A DNA stretch of 64,000 nucleotides from Nanobdellota archaeon (GTDB taxonomy: Archaea; Nanobdellota; Nanobdellia; Pacearchaeales; GW2011-AR1): the NCBI GenBank assembly GCA_021799535.1, contig JAJZAH010000002.1, positions 16,950 to 80,949 on the forward strand, read 5' to 3'. The notes beneath the pieces are model-generated. The model made no database searches. It saw only the letters and a program-made list of their open reading frames with translations, and had not been told where the DNA came from. Below are positions 25,765 through 30,690 of the stretch, in pieces; the first letter of the stretch is position 1, and the number at the start of each line of letters is the position of its first letter. The position numbers and the translations under genes were made by a program.

Positions 25765-25786
25765 GCTCCGTAGCTCAGTCTGGTCA
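25765..25786 (+). repeat. Orphan copy of the tRNA-Lys 5' acceptor/D-arm (22 nt, perfect)
   Basis: GCTCCGTAGCTCAGTCTGGTCA is identical to 25838-25859. The downstream sequence does not fold into a cloverleaf by hand. Confidence 0.85.
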
Positions 25787-25836: not shown

Positions 25837-25911
25837 GGCTCCGTAGCTCAGTCTGGTCAGAGCACTGGACTCTTAATCCAGGTGTCGGGGGTTCAAATCC
25901 CCTCGGGGCCA
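25837..25911 (+). tRNA. tRNA-Lys (anticodon CUU)
   Basis: Manual cloverleaf: acceptor GGCTCCG/CGGGGCC, D-arm GCTC-AGTCTGGTCA-GAGC, anticodon arm CTGGA-CTCTTAA-TCCAG, variable loop GTGTC, T-arm GGGGG-TTCAAAT-CCCCT, discriminator A. No encoded CCA. Confidence 0.9.
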
Positions 25912-25955: not shown

Positions 25956-26288
25956 ATGGCCTTAAGTTTTTGCAGTAAGTGCAAAAACATACTCCCCCCT
26001 CAGCATTCTGATGAGAATTTTGTAGTGTGTCCGAAATGTGGGCTTTTGCAAAAGATTAAGGGTGATTTAATCTCGACTGAAAATACTCCAAAAAAAATAC
26101 AGAAAGGGCACGGGATCGGAAGCGATGAGAATGTTTGTGCGACTTACGATCATACATGTAAAAGATGCGGATACAGCAAAGCTCAGGTAATTGACATGGG
26201 TGTAAAATATTCTGATGAAGATAATCTTATTTTCCTGAAATGTGGGAAGTGCAGTTTCTCAGAAAGAATCGGAAGAAAAACAAGCTGA
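25956..26288 (+). CDS. TFS paralog with a divergent catalytic hairpin
   Basis: Same two-ribbon architecture (CSKC...CPKC; CKRC...CGKC). It aligns residue for residue with the TFS C-ribbon, but QTRSSDE becomes GVKYSDE. Confidence 0.75.
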   Translation: MALSFCSKCKNILPPQHSDENFVVCPKCGLLQKIKGDLISTENTPKKIQKGHGIGSDENVCATYDHTCKRCGYSKAQVIDMGVKYSDEDNLIFLKCGKCSFSERIGRKTS

Positions 26289-26454: not shown

Positions 26455-26730
26455 TTATTTGATAAGAACCTGTATATTCTCAATCGCGTCTGCAACCTGT
26501 CTCCCTTTGGGTGTAAGCTTTATGAGTTTGATCCTACCTTTCTTGTCAAACTCAACAAGCCTCAGGAGTTCCAGTGTCTGCAGTATCTTTACCGCATGGC
26601 TATAAGTGCAGTCCACTTCTTTAGCCAAAACACTACCATACCTCATCCTAGTGTTCTTCTTCAGAGAAACGAGCATCAATGCCGGCTTCCTTCTGAAAAA
26701 GATGTCGAAGTTGTCTTCCATCTTGGACAT
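26455..26730 (-). CDS. Small winged-helix transcriptional regulator (91 aa)
   Basis: The pattern YGSVLAKEVDCTYSHAVKILQTLELLRLVEFDKKGRIKLIKLTPKG is typical of a wHTH (ArsR/MarR-like). Confidence 0.55.
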   Translation of the reverse strand: MSKMEDNFDIFFRRKPALMLVSLKKNTRMRYGSVLAKEVDCTYSHAVKILQTLELLRLVEFDKKGRIKLIKLTPKGRQVADAIENIQVLIK

Positions 26731-26865
26731 GTATAGTTTAATATATATTTTATGACAACCCCTTCCTTATAAATATTTTGTGACCGTCGTGTTAAACATT
26801 AAGTGACAGATTTCTCAGGCGTTGCACGAAAATTCTTCGTCAGAAAAATGGCTGAACGTAAAAGC

Positions 26866-27153
26866 CTAAAAGTCGCTCCCGCCAAAGGGATAAGAATCTA
26901 TGCTTCCCCATTCAAGAAGGTAACTGCAGTTGGGACATTGCATAGGCGGAGGCTCTTGAATTTTGTCAGTCAGACTTTTTCCATGCTTATGGTTGTTTAT
27001 CATTTTCTCTAACCATGGGATTGAATATTCCTGTATGTAATTGTTAGTATACTTGTGCAGATCCTGGTGGCAGTTGCTGCATTCAATCAATGCCCCGCCC
27101 ATATCATCACCTAAGACTGTAATGAAAGCTCTATTAGAGTTTTTCTCTCTCAT
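26866..27153 (-). CDS. Zinc-ribbon-like small protein (95 aa)
   Basis: CSNC ... CPNC pair. GGGGGT SD-like sequence about 9 nt upstream of the ATG. Overlaps the upstream ORF by 20 nt. Confidence 0.5.
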   Translation of the reverse strand: MREKNSNRAFITVLGDDMGGALIECSNCHQDLHKYTNNYIQEYSIPWLEKMINNHKHGKSLTDKIQEPPPMQCPNCSYLLEWGSIDSYPFGGSDF

Positions 27154-27523
27154 TTTGGTTAACCCCCTTTGAATTGGTTTTTATATAAAACGGACAGGTA
27201 AGATGATCCTCTTCTTTGCATGGATGATAGTCTGTGTTTTGGTTATATTCCCCATACTGAAAATTCTGAAGCATGCATTTGTATTCTCCGAACGGCGAGT
27301 AAAGCATATCGTCGCATAAAAATTCAGAATAGTCGCATGATGAGTCGCCATTACTTTTGGGAAATTCTTTCTGACTTCTTGAGTAAACTCTTATTTTGTT
27401 TGCCAATTCATTAAGATCGTCCGTGAGTTCATTCTCAAGTTCTCTTTCTTTCATAAGAGATAAAAGACTTGTATTATTCATAGTTTTTACACGACAAAAT
27501 TTGTCATTAATATTGGAAGTCAT
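27134..27523 (-). CDS. Acidic Cys-rich small protein (start uncertain: 27523 or 27481)
   Basis: Six Cys in the C-terminal 70 aa (SSCDYSEFLCDD...YKC...HPCKEEDHLTCPFY). GGTG lies 6-9 nt upstream of the ATG at 27523. Coupled to the radical SAM gene. Confidence 0.45.
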   Translation of the reverse strand: MTSNINDKFCRVKTMNNTSLLSLMKERELENELTDDLNELANKIRVYSRSQKEFPKSNGDSSCDYSEFLCDDMLYSPFGEYKCMLQNFQYGEYNQNTDYHPCKEEDHLTCPFYIKTNSKGVNQNEREKL

Positions 27524-28172
27524 TATGCACCACAGAGTCGCTTTCAATAAAATAAAGATCGCGGGAATAGCTGTCGAGCGTTCTGTCAAACATGACTTTT
27601 GGATGTGAAAAATCGAAATATCCCACAAATTTATCTTTCTCTAATGAGCAAGCTGGGAATAGTTCCCTGAACATGAAAATGTCTACTTTATTTTCGTAAA
27701 TTGTTACAAATTCCTTTATTTTTTCTATACTATCTATTGCACCTTTTATGAGTATTGTTTGCATTCTTATCTTTCCGACTTTTGGTCTGTAAAAATTTAA
27801 GGTTTCATCAAGCTCATTTTGGAGTTTGCTCCTGTAAAAGAAGTTGTTTATGCTTGAATTCCAATGCACCCTTGAGAGGTTAAGCTCGTCTATCCCTGAG
27901 ATTTCTTTTAAAAGGAACCCCTCAGTGTAAAGCTTCACATATTTACCACGAAATAAATTTATTATTTCTTGTATATCCTTATGGAGCAATGGGTCTCCAC
28001 CTCCAGTAATTTCAACTTCCTCGAAATCGTCGATTCCCGAAATCGCTTTTTCAAGCTTTGAAACGTCGATAAATTGCGGCTTCTTATAATCAATTTCTTT
28101 TTCTTTCATATAGCAGAATGTGCAGTTCGCGGGGCAGGCATCTCTTACAGGAATAAGGTATAACCTTTTCAT
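27507..28172 (-). CDS. Small stand-alone radical SAM enzyme (221 aa)
   Basis: CPANCTFC (Cx3Cx2C) at residues 13-20, checked codon by codon at 28113-28136. GGE-like EITGGGDPLL motif. No C-terminal SPASM/twitch Cys cluster. Confidence 0.85.
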   Translation of the reverse strand: MKRLYLIPVRDACPANCTFCYMKEKEIDYKKPQFIDVSKLEKAISGIDDFEEVEITGGGDPLLHKDIQEIINLFRGKYVKLYTEGFLLKEISGIDELNLSRVHWNSSINNFFYRSKLQNELDETLNFYRPKVGKIRMQTILIKGAIDSIEKIKEFVTIYENKVDIFMFRELFPACSLEKDKFVGYFDFSHPKVMFDRTLDSYSRDLYFIESDSVVHNDFQY

Positions 28173-28993
28173 CTTCTTTTTCCGCTCCCAAATGACCTTC
28201 TTGTTGCTTCCTTCATTTCCAAAAGGTCATCAAGACTCATTTCCGGGAAATTCTTTTCAGTGTATCCTTCTATCGCCCCTATTATATCTGAAAGCTCCAA
28301 GAGGCTCATTATTTTTATCCCCTGATTCAGCGAGTCTTTGAATTCCAAAAGCTCTTCGTAGATCTTTTCAGCGCTTCCAAACTCTTCATGGGGGATGTCT
28401 TTTTTGTGGTAACCTTTTTGTTTTAAGCTCAGCACATAGCTCAGCCGGGGTTCAGCGATTCCCGTCCCGTAAATCCAATGATAAGTTTTGTAAGACCTGT
28501 GCCCATAGCTTCCAAGTTCTATTTTTTCATTCTTTGAGATTATATCCCTGCCCGAAAGCGTTCCGATAATCTCTGTTTGAAGATATTTTGAAAAGAATTC
28601 ATTTGATGTTTCAATTAGCTGTTTCTCCTTGTTGTAACTTTCGAATTTTTCCGCTTTTCCGAGGTAATCTATCAGCTCTACTTTGAAGAATGATCTTTTA
28701 TGGATTTCATCAACCACTTTTTCATCTCTATAACATGGGGTCGCGCAGCAGTACTTTCCATTGCTCAATCTTCCCTCAAGAATCAATTCCAGAAATCCCT
28801 GTTCCCCCGAAGCGATATGGTTTCCGGTATAATTATTATCAAGAAAGCACCTGAATCTCCTGACCTCTTTTGGTGCTGTCGCACTGTCAGACTCCTCCGA
28901 AACTATCCAAGGGACTTCAATGTATCTGAATCCTTTTGAATCATAGAATTCAATGGCTTGGGCAATCTTAGGGTAATCTATCCCTATTTCCAT
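28169..28993 (-). CDS. Minimal class II aminoacyl-tRNA-synthetase-like core fused to a MazG/HisE-like NTP pyrophosphohydrolase module
   Basis: GFRYIEVPWI (motif 1-like), ATPCYRDE (motif 2-like) and YGTGIAEPRL (motif 3-like) fall within about 190 aa, with no anticodon-binding domain. C-terminal EELLEF...LELSDIIGAIEGY resembles the EExxE/ExxD all-alpha NTP-PPase signature. The domain calls are tentative. Confidence 0.55.
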   Translation of the reverse strand: MEIGIDYPKIAQAIEFYDSKGFRYIEVPWIVSEESDSATAPKEVRRFRCFLDNNYTGNHIASGEQGFLELILEGRLSNGKYCCATPCYRDEKVVDEIHKRSFFKVELIDYLGKAEKFESYNKEKQLIETSNEFFSKYLQTEIIGTLSGRDIISKNEKIELGSYGHRSYKTYHWIYGTGIAEPRLSYVLSLKQKGYHKKDIPHEEFGSAEKIYEELLEFKDSLNQGIKIMSLLELSDIIGAIEGYTEKNFPEMSLDDLLEMKEATRRSFGSGKRR

Positions 28994-29063
28994 AATAAAT
29001 TAAGACTTGCATAATTCTTGACAATTTCTGTACAAAAGATACAACTATGCGCATTATAGGAGA

Positions 29064-29083
29064 AATGCTTAAAAATAGGCATT
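29064..29083 (+). promoter_or_regulatory. TATA-like box embedded in the inverted repeat AATGC-N10-GCATT
   Basis: AATGCTTAAAAATAGGCATT lies about 25 nt upstream of the ATG at 29098. An 8-nt palindrome ATGCGCAT sits at 29047-29054 in the same divergent promoter region. Confidence 0.35.
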
Positions 29084-29097
29084 AACAAAGAGACTTT

Positions 29098-29937
29098 ATG
29101 CTTGATGGCCAGACCATGCAAAAAATAGAGAAGTTCGTTTCCGTTGAACCAAGAAGTATAAATGAAATCTCTGAATATATCCAAAAGAACTGGAGGACTG
29201 TTGACAGATATTTAAAAGAGATGGAGGAAGAGTATGGGAACATAATGACTAAGACGTTCAGGGGAGGGACACGCGGGGCCCTTAAGGTAGCATACATACT
29301 CAATCCTGAAAGAGCAAGCTCGACTAAACTCCAGGAAGAGCTTGAAAATGAAATCTTAAGGCAAAAAAGAAAAGAGGAGTTCTCTGCCTTTGACATATTC
29401 CAGCATGTGCCTGAAAAAAACAAAGTTGCAATTGTCGAGGATGAAATTTCTGAAAAAGGCACAAACTTGAAAGAGTTAATTCAGATATTGAATTCTACTA
29501 AAAAAGAGCTCAAGTTATTTTCTGGGAATCTATCATGGATAAATTTAAAGAAAGGAGATATTGATTTGTTCAATACCCTCGAAGAACTGGTTAAAAGAGG
29601 TGTGAGGGTCAAGGTTCTTTGCCGGGTTGATCTTTCGGGAATTGAAAATATCAAAAAAGTGTTATCGTTGAATTATAAATATGGAAATGAACTCATTGAG
29701 ATAAGGCACCGGGAGCATCCCATAAGAGCATTTGTTGTTGATAATAGCTCAATAAGATTAAAGGAGATACGCGAGCCTACCGGCAAGATAAAAGAACTCG
29801 ACAGGAAGATTTTTATTTTTTACACCATAAAAGACAAGGAATGGACAGAGTGGCTTTCGAAAATATTCATAAAGCTCTTCAATACCTCAGTTGGCGCCGA
29901 AAAAAGACTTGCGGAACTTGAAAAAATCGTGAAATAG
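29098..29937 (+). CDS. TrmB-like regulator (N-terminal wHTH plus TrmB_C/PLD-like C-terminal domain)
   Basis: N-terminal EPRSINEISEYIQKNWRTVDRYLKEM helix-turn-helix. C-terminal RGVRVKVLCRVD...IRAFVVDNSSIRLKE parallels the C-terminal domains of the two clear TrmB paralogs in this window. Confidence 0.5.
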   Translation: MLDGQTMQKIEKFVSVEPRSINEISEYIQKNWRTVDRYLKEMEEEYGNIMTKTFRGGTRGALKVAYILNPERASSTKLQEELENEILRQKRKEEFSAFDIFQHVPEKNKVAIVEDEISEKGTNLKELIQILNSTKKELKLFSGNLSWINLKKGDIDLFNTLEELVKRGVRVKVLCRVDLSGIENIKKVLSLNYKYGNELIEIRHREHPIRAFVVDNSSIRLKEIREPTGKIKELDRKIFIFYTIKDKEWTEWLSKIFIKLFNTSVGAEKRLAELEKIVK

Positions 29938-30099: not shown

Positions 30100-30690
30100 A
30101 TGAAAGTGCTTGCTGTCTCGGATATACACGGTGACTTGGGTCTTGTTAAACGGGTTGAAAAGATGATTGAAAAAGAAAATGTGGATCTTGTTATTCTGGC
30201 CGGGGATCAAACTTGGTTTGAACAGGTGAAAAAAGGGCTTGTCGGACCGCTTACAAAGAAACCTGCACTCATAATCCCGAGCAATCACGAAACTGAGGAG
30301 ACTGTGAGGATTTGGGAAGAGATGTACCCCAATCTTAAAAGCATTCATAAAAAAAATTTTGCTTTTGGGGATGTTGGATTTTTTGGATCTGGAACAGTTG
30401 ACTGGGGATTCGAAGAGAATTCGCAAAAGGTTTTTAACGAGCTGAAGAGCGCTCATGAGGGGATCAAAAAACTCAGGAAAAAAGTTATGATAACGCATTG
30501 TCCTCCTGAAGGAAGCGCGATAGAGCTTATGGGTTTTCCCGGTTCATATGGCATCGCAAAGGCGATTGAGAAGTTTTCCCCTAACTTTTTGATCTGCGGG
30601 CATATCCATGAGGGCGGAGGACTCATAGAAAGGATAAAGAATACCCAAGTCATAAATGTGGCAAGAAGCCCGACGATATTTGAAATTTGA
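30100..30690 (+). CDS. Calcineurin-like metallophosphoesterase (YfcE/MJ0936-like)
   Basis: Motifs SDIHGD, AGDQ, SNHE and GHIHEG. Confidence 0.8.
   Translation: MKVLAVSDIHGDLGLVKRVEKMIEKENVDLVILAGDQTWFEQVKKGLVGPLTKKPALIIPSNHETEETVRIWEEMYPNLKSIHKKNFAFGDVGFFGSGTVDWGFEENSQKVFNELKSAHEGIKKLRKKVMITHCPPEGSAIELMGFPGSYGIAKAIEKFSPNFLICGHIHEGGGLIERIKNTQVINVARSPTIFEI

Follow-up and report, generated by a model that had tools for sequence, protein, structure and literature searches.

Class II aminoacyl-tRNA synthetase (aaRS) paralogs that act without tRNA are proteins of ~300–390 residues, and the radical S-adenosylmethionine (SAM) enzymes of the viperin and MoaA type are roughly 280–330 residues long. 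In two other systems, MazZ with PurZ in Z-genome phages and Pur7 with Pur6 in the puromycin pathway, a nucleoside triphosphate (NTP) pyrophosphatase is paired with an ATP-dependent enzyme that joins an amino acid to a nucleotide. The described tRNA-less paralogs, AsnA, EpmA/PoxA, the amino acid:carrier-protein ligases and HisZ, are stand-alone class II cores with no anticodon-binding domain (PMC9437257). Here we analyze a locus in a 64,000-nucleotide stretch (the window) of contig JAJZAH010000002.1 (assembly GCA_021799535.1) from a Nanobdellota archaeon, in which a 274-residue protein joins a small class II core, most similar to seryl-tRNA synthetase (SerRS), to a HisE/MazG-like domain, and the adjoining gene encodes a 221-residue radical SAM enzyme. 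A preliminary description of the window had grouped these genes with two small proteins in one cassette, for which it named EpmA/EpmB, HisZ/HisE and PylS/PylB as the nearest analogies.

The fusion protein resembles the tRNA-less paralogs in its stand-alone core and, presumably, in forming an acyl-adenylate with a non-tRNA acceptor. However, these paralogs are far larger than the window core and none has a HisE/MazG-type partner. The neighborhoods that we tabulated contained no carrier-protein, elongation factor P (EF-P) or HisG partner and no PP-binding or ACP family, the feature expected of a carrier-protein ligase, and neither HisG nor other his genes were present in about 25 cellular neighborhoods. 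HisZ is further set apart by the catalytic motif residues, which are invariant in the window family, and by the closest aaRS of that family, which is SerRS and not HisRS. With SerRS itself the core shares the class II fold, motifs 1–3 and the strings (T/S)-x-E-Q, C-F-R-x-E...H-x-F-x-K-V-E, E-x-G-S and G-T-x-x-A-x-x-R, but it is only ~185 residues long, has no coiled-coil arm and shorter insertions between motifs 2 and 3, is paired with an NTP pyrophosphatase and scores under every curated family cut-off.

The C-terminal domain is like HisE and MazG in being a helical unit of ~80 residues with an EExxE...ExxD motif, and unlike them in its marginal family scores, in standing outside any histidine-biosynthesis context and in being fused or adjacent to an aaRS-like core. 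The radical SAM enzyme is closest in overall fold to viperin and MoaA, both of which bind NTPs, gives partial matches to prokaryotic viperin (pVip) models and has homologs beside VakA-like kinases in the same genomic slot. By contrast, at 221 residues it is shorter than either, its partner is the aaRS-like/pyrophosphatase fusion rather than a kinase, the C-terminal auxiliary cluster of MoaA is missing, and no viperin model is matched over its full length including the C-terminal NTP-binding extension. EpmA/EpmB differ in that the radical SAM enzyme is a KamA-type, PLP-dependent aminomutase of ~330 residues, the synthetase paralog is LysRS-like and the target is EF-P. The analogies named above therefore fail as memberships, given the low family scores, the sizes, the absent partners and the SerRS origin of the core. 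By sequence, the proteins belong to three superfamilies (class II core, HisE/MazG and radical SAM), and no characterized family within these fits them; the system is of the tRNA-less aaRS paralog kind, with an unprecedented obligate partner. Literature searches on an aaRS-like protein paired with a pyrophosphatase, and on an aaRS-like protein with a radical SAM enzyme in DPANN archaea, found no relevant paper, and a review of aaRS paralogs lists nothing like this enzyme (PMC9437257). The earlier statement that no characterized pathway has this combination agrees with these searches and with the family scores given below.

Results

The fusion protein

The two enzymes are encoded as follows.

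28169..28993, minus strand: fusion protein, 274 residues, a predicted SerRS-derived minimal class II adenylate-forming core plus a HisE/MazG-type NTP pyrophosphatase domain (open reading frame (ORF), PHROG matches, AlphaFold2 (AF2) model)
28418..28993, minus strand: core domain of the fusion, residues 1–192, class II aaRS catalytic fold with motifs 1, 2 and 3
28172..28417, minus strand: C-terminal all-alpha NTP pyrophosphohydrolase-like domain of the fusion, residues 193–274, HisE-like
27507..28172, minus strand: small radical SAM enzyme, 221 residues (PF04055, AF2 model)

In the curated libraries no Pfam, NCBIfam or PADLOC family matched the fusion above its cut-off (PF00152, 16.7 bits versus 25; the NCBIfam AsnRS model, 12.5 versus 414). 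The fusion has 139 homologs, and class II Pfam models, sub-threshold for the window protein, were matched by 27, 17 and 5 of 40 family members. Residues invariant in an alignment of 40 homologs are P28 of motif 1, S62-x-E64-Q65, R89 (in R89-D/E) and F102-x-K104-x-E106 of motif 2, E159-x-G-S162, and G176 and T177-G178...R183 of motif 3. The AF2 model of the 274-residue protein has a predicted local distance difference test score (pLDDT) of 94.3, and Foldseek matched its residues 1–190 to the catalytic domains of PylRS, SerRS and PheRS-alpha (E~1e-9). Class II aaRS-like motifs 1–3 without an anticodon-binding domain, as claimed in the preliminary description, are thus borne out.

What that description had missed is the SerRS-derived origin of the core. 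When the family profile was compared with the PDB, SerRS proteins accounted for all of the top 16 matches (best E 2.9e-7), with AspRS and AsnRS next at E>0.3, and hhalign of the core against three DPANN SerRS sequences gave 95% probability (E 2.6e-8). The SerRS-type strings listed above are kept in the core, as seen by MAFFT and hhalign with the three DPANN sequences and PDB SerRS structures; their residues may have the serine-binding roles that they have in Thermus thermophilus SerRS. The core begins directly at the motif 1 helix, where the N-terminal coiled-coil tRNA arm is absent, and ends at ~190 residues. It has no tRNA-binding or anticodon-binding domain, and the sole other domain is the HisE-like one. 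Judged from these sequence features, the core is a class II adenylate-forming domain of ~185 residues with all ATP/Mg-binding motifs intact, and its nearest aaRS is SerRS; the name "histidyl tRNA synthetase" given in RefSeq and PHROG is therefore unsupported.

Residues 193–274 form three helices in the AF2 model (208–224, 227–248 and 254–270) and carry an invariant EExxExxD...ExxD motif (E213, E214, E217, D220, E233 and D236), in which the metal-binding ExxE(12-28)ExxD motif of the HisE/MazG superfamily is present. PF01503 (PRA-PH) was matched by 11 of 17 homologs (E<=10), with marginal scores and a best E of 9.5e-4, and MazG by one of the 17 (E 1.1e-4). The top PDB profile match was 2a7w, a phosphoribosyl-ATP pyrophosphatase (E 0.06), and the PRA-PH/2a7w match takes in the segment before the EE motif. 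In BFVD, the domain matched a phage "MazG-like" protein with a root mean square deviation of 2.0 Å and 39% identity. The proposal of a MazG/HisE-like NTP pyrophosphatase module fused at the C terminus is consistent with the invariant acidic motif and with both kinds of match. Both the aaRS-like and the MazG-like assignments, for which profile searches and AlphaFold/Foldseek comparisons had been suggested as checks, hold, the second at marginal profile scores.

Distribution of the enzyme pair

Residues 3–192 of the fusion match phrog_4806 (E 6.8e-42) and residues 193–273 match phrog_6408 (E 1.7e-30). The fusion is thus, on sequence grounds, the Rosetta-stone form of a widespread phage gene pair, a relationship absent from the preliminary description. 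In Erwinia phage Hena1 the pair consists of the overlapping genes gp180 and gp181; another candidate for the pyrophosphatase partner, the gene that follows the core in Hena1 and in Acj61, proved wrong, the Hena1 partner being the upstream gp180. The core is present in 276 of 50,697 isolated phage records, 112 of which are Escherichia phage records, and the carriers include T4-like phages, Vequintavirinae, jumbo phages and phages of Caulobacter, Campylobacter and Microcystis. IMG/VR contains 106 relatives. An exhaustive hidden Markov model (HMM) search yielded 2,510 clusters at 50% identity, 1,238 of them at E<=1e-30.

We tabulated the gene arrangement at 105 loci from phages, IMG/VR and metagenome-assembled genomes (MAGs). 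The core precedes its partner in 35, the partner precedes the core in 29, the two are fused in about 16–20, and the core stands alone in about 6. The split genes usually overlap in large phages, in either order, and the split pair is adjacent also in bacterial MAG contigs. Fusions are likewise known in both orders, the reverse one in P0176, P0211 and P0264. Fused forms occur in DPANN archaea (Woesearchaeota, Nanoarchaeota and Pacearchaeota-type contigs), in the candidate phyla radiation (CPR; WWE3, Spechtbacterales and Saccharibacteria) and in some viruses. Fusion in both orders and near-universal adjacency tie the core and the pyrophosphatase together, as read from these gene arrangements. 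The viral loci have no third gene in common, the best neighbor cluster being found at 11 of about 85, indicating that the pair is a self-contained two-component enzyme.

The neighborhoods of the pair hold several further features. Hena1 gp182 (L016:5566-5895; L-numbers denote the compared loci and W the window's own) is DUF4326-like by eye, matches phrog_464 and "NrdA-like" in PHROG and is named "NrdA-like" in RefSeq, and L004:1045-1443 is a DUF4326 gene by Pfam with an NAD synthase gene and a NadR-like gene nearby. DUF4326-type genes together with NadR, PnuC and NAD synthase genes lie near the pair in two unrelated large viral genomes, Hena1 and L004. DUF4326-type proteins have been proposed to be ADP-ribose phosphate-processing enzymes (PMC9503650). 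In a Saccharibacteria MAG (L026:5749-7349), the split pair and a gene for a 230-residue winged helix-turn-helix (wHTH) protein, Nudix-like by eye, stand between rpsG and fusA of the str operon, with the wHTH gene preceding the pair. An NrtR-type Nudix-wHTH regulator gene directly precedes the fusion and radical SAM genes in L198, and L001, L020 and L025 carry the fusion by itself in ordinary chromosomal surroundings. The AAA_28 kinase gene that neighbors the fusion is broken into two ORFs on several independent contigs (L009:7836-8379, L010, L184 and L175), and may be a pseudogene or a gene that is truly divided.

The radical SAM enzyme

The 221-residue protein scores 37.7 bits against PF04055 (cut-off 29.5) and contains CxxxCxxC at residues 13–20 (C13, C17 and C20) and GGGDP at residues 57–61. 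Beyond the SAM cluster there is only one further invariant Cys and no SPASM or auxiliary cluster, in line with the earlier call of a radical SAM enzyme without auxiliary-cluster cysteines. The AF2 model has a pLDDT of 85, and over the whole chain Foldseek matched it best to MoaA and viperins (TMq 0.64–0.68), alongside the radical SAM domains of SPASM enzymes. The equivalog models for MoaA, viperin, EpmB/KamA and QueE all scored far under their cut-offs. NCBIfam viperin_w_prok gave 21.8 bits versus 180 and the MoaA models gave 35.2 versus 325 and 32.9 versus 284, while EpmB (21 versus 369) and KamA (22 versus 199) matched the cluster motif only. PADLOC pVip matches were confined to residues 10–90 or 11–143.

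There are ~20 close homologs, all on DPANN/CPR-type contigs, and in the nine loci examined (W, L005, L011, L013, L015, the WWE3 locus L023, L198, L199 and L200) the gene directly adjoins the fusion in every case. The converse fails: the fusion or the pair occurs without this radical SAM enzyme in L007/L018, L009/L010, L020, L022, L025, L001 and essentially all phages. In isolated phages, the search for a window-type radical SAM enzyme found one relative, 29% identical, in a 735-kb phage, with no fusion nearby. This relative is a 298-residue protein (L117:6899-7795) of the uncultured phage LR756501, called the largest known phage genome; no aaRS-like pair is near it, and 3 kb away lies a gene for a 339-residue nucleotidyltransferase-like protein that is also found beside the pair in other viral loci. 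Seven viral loci, of which five have a fused 266-residue form, encode a radical SAM enzyme of another family, phrog_16999, ~1.1 kb downstream of the module. A viral 305-residue radical SAM enzyme was rejected as an ortholog of the window enzyme, the similarity being confined to the N-terminal 68 columns.

Distant homologs of the window enzyme (hhalign 99.5%, E 1e-22) are found in the same genomic slot beside a thymidylate-kinase-like gene that matches PADLOC VakA. In L181:1157-2194 and L147:295-1517, homologous radical SAM enzymes adjoin this VakA-like gene and one is fused to a dCMP/cytidine deaminase domain; this is possibly a new viperin-like nucleotide-modifying cassette. The kinase neighbors and the deaminase fusion indicate a nucleotide substrate for this radical SAM clade. 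The slot also contains tandem paralogous radical SAM enzymes of 288–302 and 273–275 residues (L161:4213-5870, L165:3230-4932 and L180:4209-5863), which sometimes follow AAA_28 and CYTH genes and give weak pVip HMM matches only.

The two small proteins

Downstream of the radical SAM gene are two further ORFs.

27134..27523, minus strand: variable Cys-rich small protein, 129 residues as read, probably 106 residues from the ATG at 27454
26866..27153, minus strand: variable zinc-ribbon protein with CxxC...CxxC, 95 residues

One reading of the cassette, with modification of the Cys-rich proteins among the roles named in the preliminary description, takes all four genes as one pathway in which the enzymes modify the small proteins, in the manner of EpmA/EpmB acting on EF-P or of the biosynthesis of ribosomally synthesized and post-translationally modified peptides. 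The ORFs are indeed contiguous, overlapping and on one strand, and L005 keeps the same gene order with an ortholog of the 95-residue protein (57% identity). Among the fusion loci, however, the 95-residue protein is common only to L005, and its relatives are duplicated in L119–L122, in cassettes with neither fusion nor radical SAM enzyme and beside a protein 82% identical to the 279-residue protein of the window. For the Cys-rich protein no family match was found in Pfam, NCBIfam, PADLOC or PHROG, and PADLOC gave none for either small protein. Its N-terminal helix resembles a 181-residue protein of L005 and its Cys-rich part the 75/80-residue proteins of L007; relatives of the Cys-rich protein thus occur in L007 and L018, whose cassettes have no radical SAM enzyme. 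Conversely, L011, L013, L015, L023 and L198–L200 encode the fusion and the radical SAM enzyme without either small protein. The absence of a SPASM or auxiliary cluster and the EpmB and KamA scores of 21–22 bits against cut-offs of 199–369 also speak against such chemistry.

The four-gene pathway reading is, from the gene content of these loci, largely refuted by the missing co-conservation, and we consider it very improbable. Only the fusion and the radical SAM enzyme travel together, so the neighborhood comparison that had been proposed as a check supports this pair and not the small proteins, which by the same sequence comparison are variable cargo rather than pathway partners. Because they occur without the enzymes, modification of the co-encoded Cys-rich proteins is also unlikely.

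The hypervariable slot

The surrounding features are listed below.

28994..29097: divergent promoter region, 104 bp, with a candidate operator block (seven-locus alignment)
29098..29937, plus strand: 279-residue protein, N-terminal wHTH and a C-terminal domain with a weak PLD-like signal, bordering the variable slot
30100..30690, plus strand: metallophosphoesterase, 196 residues, closing the slot in most related loci (PF00149, 50.4 bits)
26455..26730, minus strand: 91-residue wHTH protein, backbone on the other side of the slot (HTH_27, 24.1 bits, above cut-off)
25956..26288: TFS paralog, 110 residues (TFIIS zinc ribbon, 23.8 bits)

The 279-residue protein has more than 212 relatives in our metagenome scan, which stand beside many different cassettes. 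In ~55 loci with upstream sequence, the stretch between its gene and the metallophosphoesterase gene is hypervariable and holds 1 to 12 genes, and the fusion is next to the 279-residue protein in only 2 of ~55 metagenome loci. The slot contains an AAA_28 kinase with or without CYTH (about 25 loci), paired radical SAM enzymes, a VakA-like kinase with a radical SAM enzyme, or a kinase with a nucleotidyltransferase-like protein and a methyltransferase. Retron-type reverse transcriptases occupy it in L137 (994–2034), L155 and L172 (RVT_1, E 1e-12; PADLOC RT_III-A, E 1e-25), which suggests a defense hot spot in DPANN-type contigs. Around these unrelated cassettes runs a backbone composed of the 279-residue wHTH protein, the metallophosphoesterase, the 91-residue wHTH protein, TFS and its paralog, tRNA-Lys(CTT) and, often, SerRS. 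The 91-residue protein is 75–98% identical in L005, L011 and L018 and is kept in loci with unrelated cassettes, metallophosphoesterase orthologs flank the slot in L005, L007, L009, L015 and some 25 loci from metagenomes, and the neighboring tRNA-Lys is conserved in W, L005, L011, L018 and L119. The TFS paralog is conserved next to the 91-residue wHTH gene in L119–L122, and is thus a stable second TFS-like gene, not island cargo.

Both wHTH genes, which had been taken for regulators specific to the cassette, therefore belong to the conserved backbone. The wHTH call for the 91-residue protein stands. For the 279-residue protein, described as TrmB-like, the N-terminal wHTH is supported by HTH_5 (five of seven homologs) and by a resemblance to PH1932 (E 0.005), whereas the TrmB assignment finds weak support, with PF01978 matched by one of seven homologs at E 0.14; PLDc_2 was matched in one homolog (E 0.015). 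In the divergent region, a seven-locus alignment, in which the flanking proteins are 35–86% identical, shows a conserved TATA-like TTTTTAA and a block TTTTGTACAGAAAnnGTCA...ATACAAGTCT, an element also written TTTTGTACAGAAA..GTCA. The loci with the conserved block include the window, L005, L007, L018, L009 and L015, and the block may be an operator of the 279-residue wHTH protein, as judged from its conservation.

Judged by position, the fusion and the radical SAM enzyme together make up one of the alternative cargoes of a defense-island-like slot. The context of the pair is centered on nucleotides and is of the conflict type. PADLOC-DB 2.0 identified no described anti-phage system at the locus and no match for the fusion. 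The location had been called accessory and an antiviral role suggested; the first fits the hypervariable slot and the second is plausible, as related genomes hold retron-type reverse transcriptases and viperin-like kinase/radical SAM cassettes in the same place.

Gene junctions and composition

All six ORFs of the region were found in the sequence with the coordinates, strands and lengths reported earlier, as was the 104-bp divergent region, and all six have homologs conserved in other assemblies, so that none has arisen as an ORF by chance. The stop codon of the fusion and the start codon of the radical SAM gene overlap in ATGA, an ATG at 27523, preceded by GGTG, gives an overlap of 17 nt with the radical SAM stop, and the ATG at 27153, preceded by GGGGGT, gives one of 20 nt with the stop before it. 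The claim that all four genes are coupled is accurate for the overlaps as ORFs; however, the 129-residue ORF is homologous to the L005 protein from Met24 onward, which makes 27454 its probable start and leaves a gap of ~50 nt to the radical SAM gene rather than an overlap.

The composition of the region is not unusual, its tetranucleotide distance being below the window mean and its GC content typical. A recently acquired island is not supported by these values, and tRNA-Lys is a conserved backbone neighbor. An Rfam scan of 24–31 kb detected tRNA-Lys(CTT) and nothing else. The fragment copy of this tRNA that had been noted is a perfect 22-nt direct repeat (25765–25786 and 25838–25859), in which a second copy of the 5′ part of tRNA-Lys(CTT) lies 73 nt upstream of the tRNA, toward the HAD hydrolase gene, perhaps as a scar left by recombination or integration.

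Discussion

With low confidence, we favor a reading in which the system makes or processes a nucleotide-derived small molecule in virus-host conflict, with the core ligating an amino acid onto a nucleotide after a pyrophosphatase step. The pyrophosphatase domain would turn an NTP into the nucleoside monophosphate, and in this archaeon the NTP might be altered beforehand by the MoaA/viperin-like radical SAM enzyme. The SerRS-like core would turn a small amino acid, serine or one like it, into the acyl-adenylate and pass the acyl group to a non-tRNA acceptor, plausibly that nucleotide, to form an aminoacyl-nucleotide. The Cys-rich proteins would be separate, variable cargo and the flanking wHTH proteins part of the backbone. 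The MazZ/PurZ and Pur7/Pur6 pairs would share only this proposed logic; their ligase folds (PurA-like and Pur6) and Pur7, a Nudix protein, appear unrelated and point to analogy without homology.

Several points weigh against this proposal. The amino acid, the acceptor and the pyrophosphatase substrate are all things that we infer, and the serine-pocket assignment leans on residue roles in T. thermophilus SerRS. Most phage copies and several CPR/DPANN copies have no radical SAM partner, so the pair must also be able to use ordinary cellular substrates. The fusion has no PADLOC model, and the defense reading rests on position, in which case carriage by phages would be counter-defense or metabolic takeover. 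In addition, the region is compositionally native, the Saccharibacteria split pair inside the str ribosomal operon looks housekeeping or translation-related, and the phage neighbors are mixed, with RNA ligase and CCA-enzyme in some and NadR, PnuC and DUF4326 in others. A bolder form of the proposal, which we offer as speculation and think unlikely, has a new class of tRNA-independent aminoacyl-nucleotide synthase on both sides of the conflict. With the radical SAM enzyme it would make a seryl-nucleotide antimetabolite in DPANN/CPR cells, possibly a mimic of an aminoacyl-adenylate or of an aminoacyl-tRNA end that blocks viral translation or replication, and large phages would use the bare pair to make, reverse or detoxify such nucleotides.

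The main rival to an aminoacyl-nucleotide product is a function at tRNA acceptor ends, in which the core would act on tRNA or tRNA fragments, by anticodon-independent aminoacylation or by 3′-end repair or protection, and the pyrophosphatase would trim pyrophosphorylated or triphosphate ends, keeping up translation under tRNA attack. SerRS does not read the anticodon, and the SerRS ancestry of the core would suit such a role. So would the viral neighbors, which include RNA ligase PF09414 (7 loci), the HD part of tRNA nucleotidyltransferase phrog_2244 (10) and the phrog_3668 hydrolase (11), with tRNA genes within 5 kb in 14 of 80 viral loci. Similarly, the Saccharibacteria pair lies between rpsG and fusA, and a SerRS gene is 1–5 kb away in L009, L011 and L022. 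A published phage RNA-repair neighborhood, in which a nucleotide kinase and a calcineurin-like phosphoesterase accompany a MazG-superfamily pyrophosphatase (PMC9503650), parallels the set of AAA_28, metallophosphoesterase and HisE-like genes seen here. However, the core is only ~185 residues long, with neither the SerRS coiled-coil arm nor any other RNA-binding domain, and its partner is strongly acidic at the active site. No neighbor is conserved across the viral loci (best cluster, 11 of about 85), and the tRNA-Lys of the window is a conserved backbone gene that is not linked to the cassette. We regard this function as unlikely.

Less probable still is a housekeeping or salvage step, such as AsnA-like amidation or ligation or an NAD/ADP-ribose reaction, that serves genome-reduced parasites (phages, CPR and DPANN) and in which the pyrophosphatase renders the reaction irreversible or clears a by-product. 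HisE-type enzymes release pyrophosphate and do not hydrolyze it, which leaves the "pulling" of adenylation unexplained. AsnA and EpmA provide the precedent of tRNA-less class II cores in ordinary metabolism (PMC9437257). NadR, PnuC and a DUF4326 protein are encoded within 3 kb in Hena1, genes for NAD synthase, a NadR-like protein and DUF4326 are close to the pair in L004, and an NrtR-type regulator precedes the fusion and radical SAM enzyme in L198, as the by-eye Nudix-like wHTH gene does the L026 split pair; these neighbors keep the metabolic reading alive. The native composition and the solitary copies at ordinary chromosomal sites in L001, L020 and L025 also fit it. Yet the fusion is patchy even in close relatives, being absent from L119–L122 despite their 82%-identical 279-residue protein, it shares a swap-in slot with reverse transcriptases and viperin-like cassettes, and the neighborhoods showed no complete pathway context. 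A dinucleoside-polyphosphate or alarmone module, in which the core would make Ap4A-type compounds from its adenylate and the pyrophosphatase and metallophosphoesterase would degrade them, seems to us distinctly improbable. Several class II aaRSs do make such compounds, and the metallophosphoesterase superfamily includes ApaH. The adenylation motifs are intact, the partner is an NTP pyrophosphatase, the slot is bordered by a metallophosphoesterase gene, and in L009 and L015 the cassettes with the fusion also contain a CYTH triphosphatase and nucleotide kinases. Nevertheless, it would be futile to fuse a synthase obligately to an enzyme that hydrolyzes what it makes, the metallophosphoesterase belongs to the backbone and stands beside unrelated cassettes too, and the radical SAM partner is left without a reason.

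The objects of interest are thus a two-part enzyme with a radical SAM add-on, and the DPANN slot that holds it, rather than a four-gene cassette. A family of more than 2,000 clusters, at present mislabeled "histidyl/seryl tRNA synthetase" or "hypothetical", proves to be an obligate two-part enzyme with no characterized counterpart, in which an NTP pyrophosphatase is bound up with what is to our knowledge the smallest SerRS-like core in nature. Its occurrence in tractable E. coli phages and in other cultivable phages makes the chemistry directly testable. Almost no antiviral systems are known from DPANN archaea, and the regulator-flanked hypervariable slot offers a handle for finding them. If amino acids are indeed attached to nucleotides by this enzyme, it would represent a new branch of aaRS-derived enzymology and of nucleotide-based immunity or counter-immunity.

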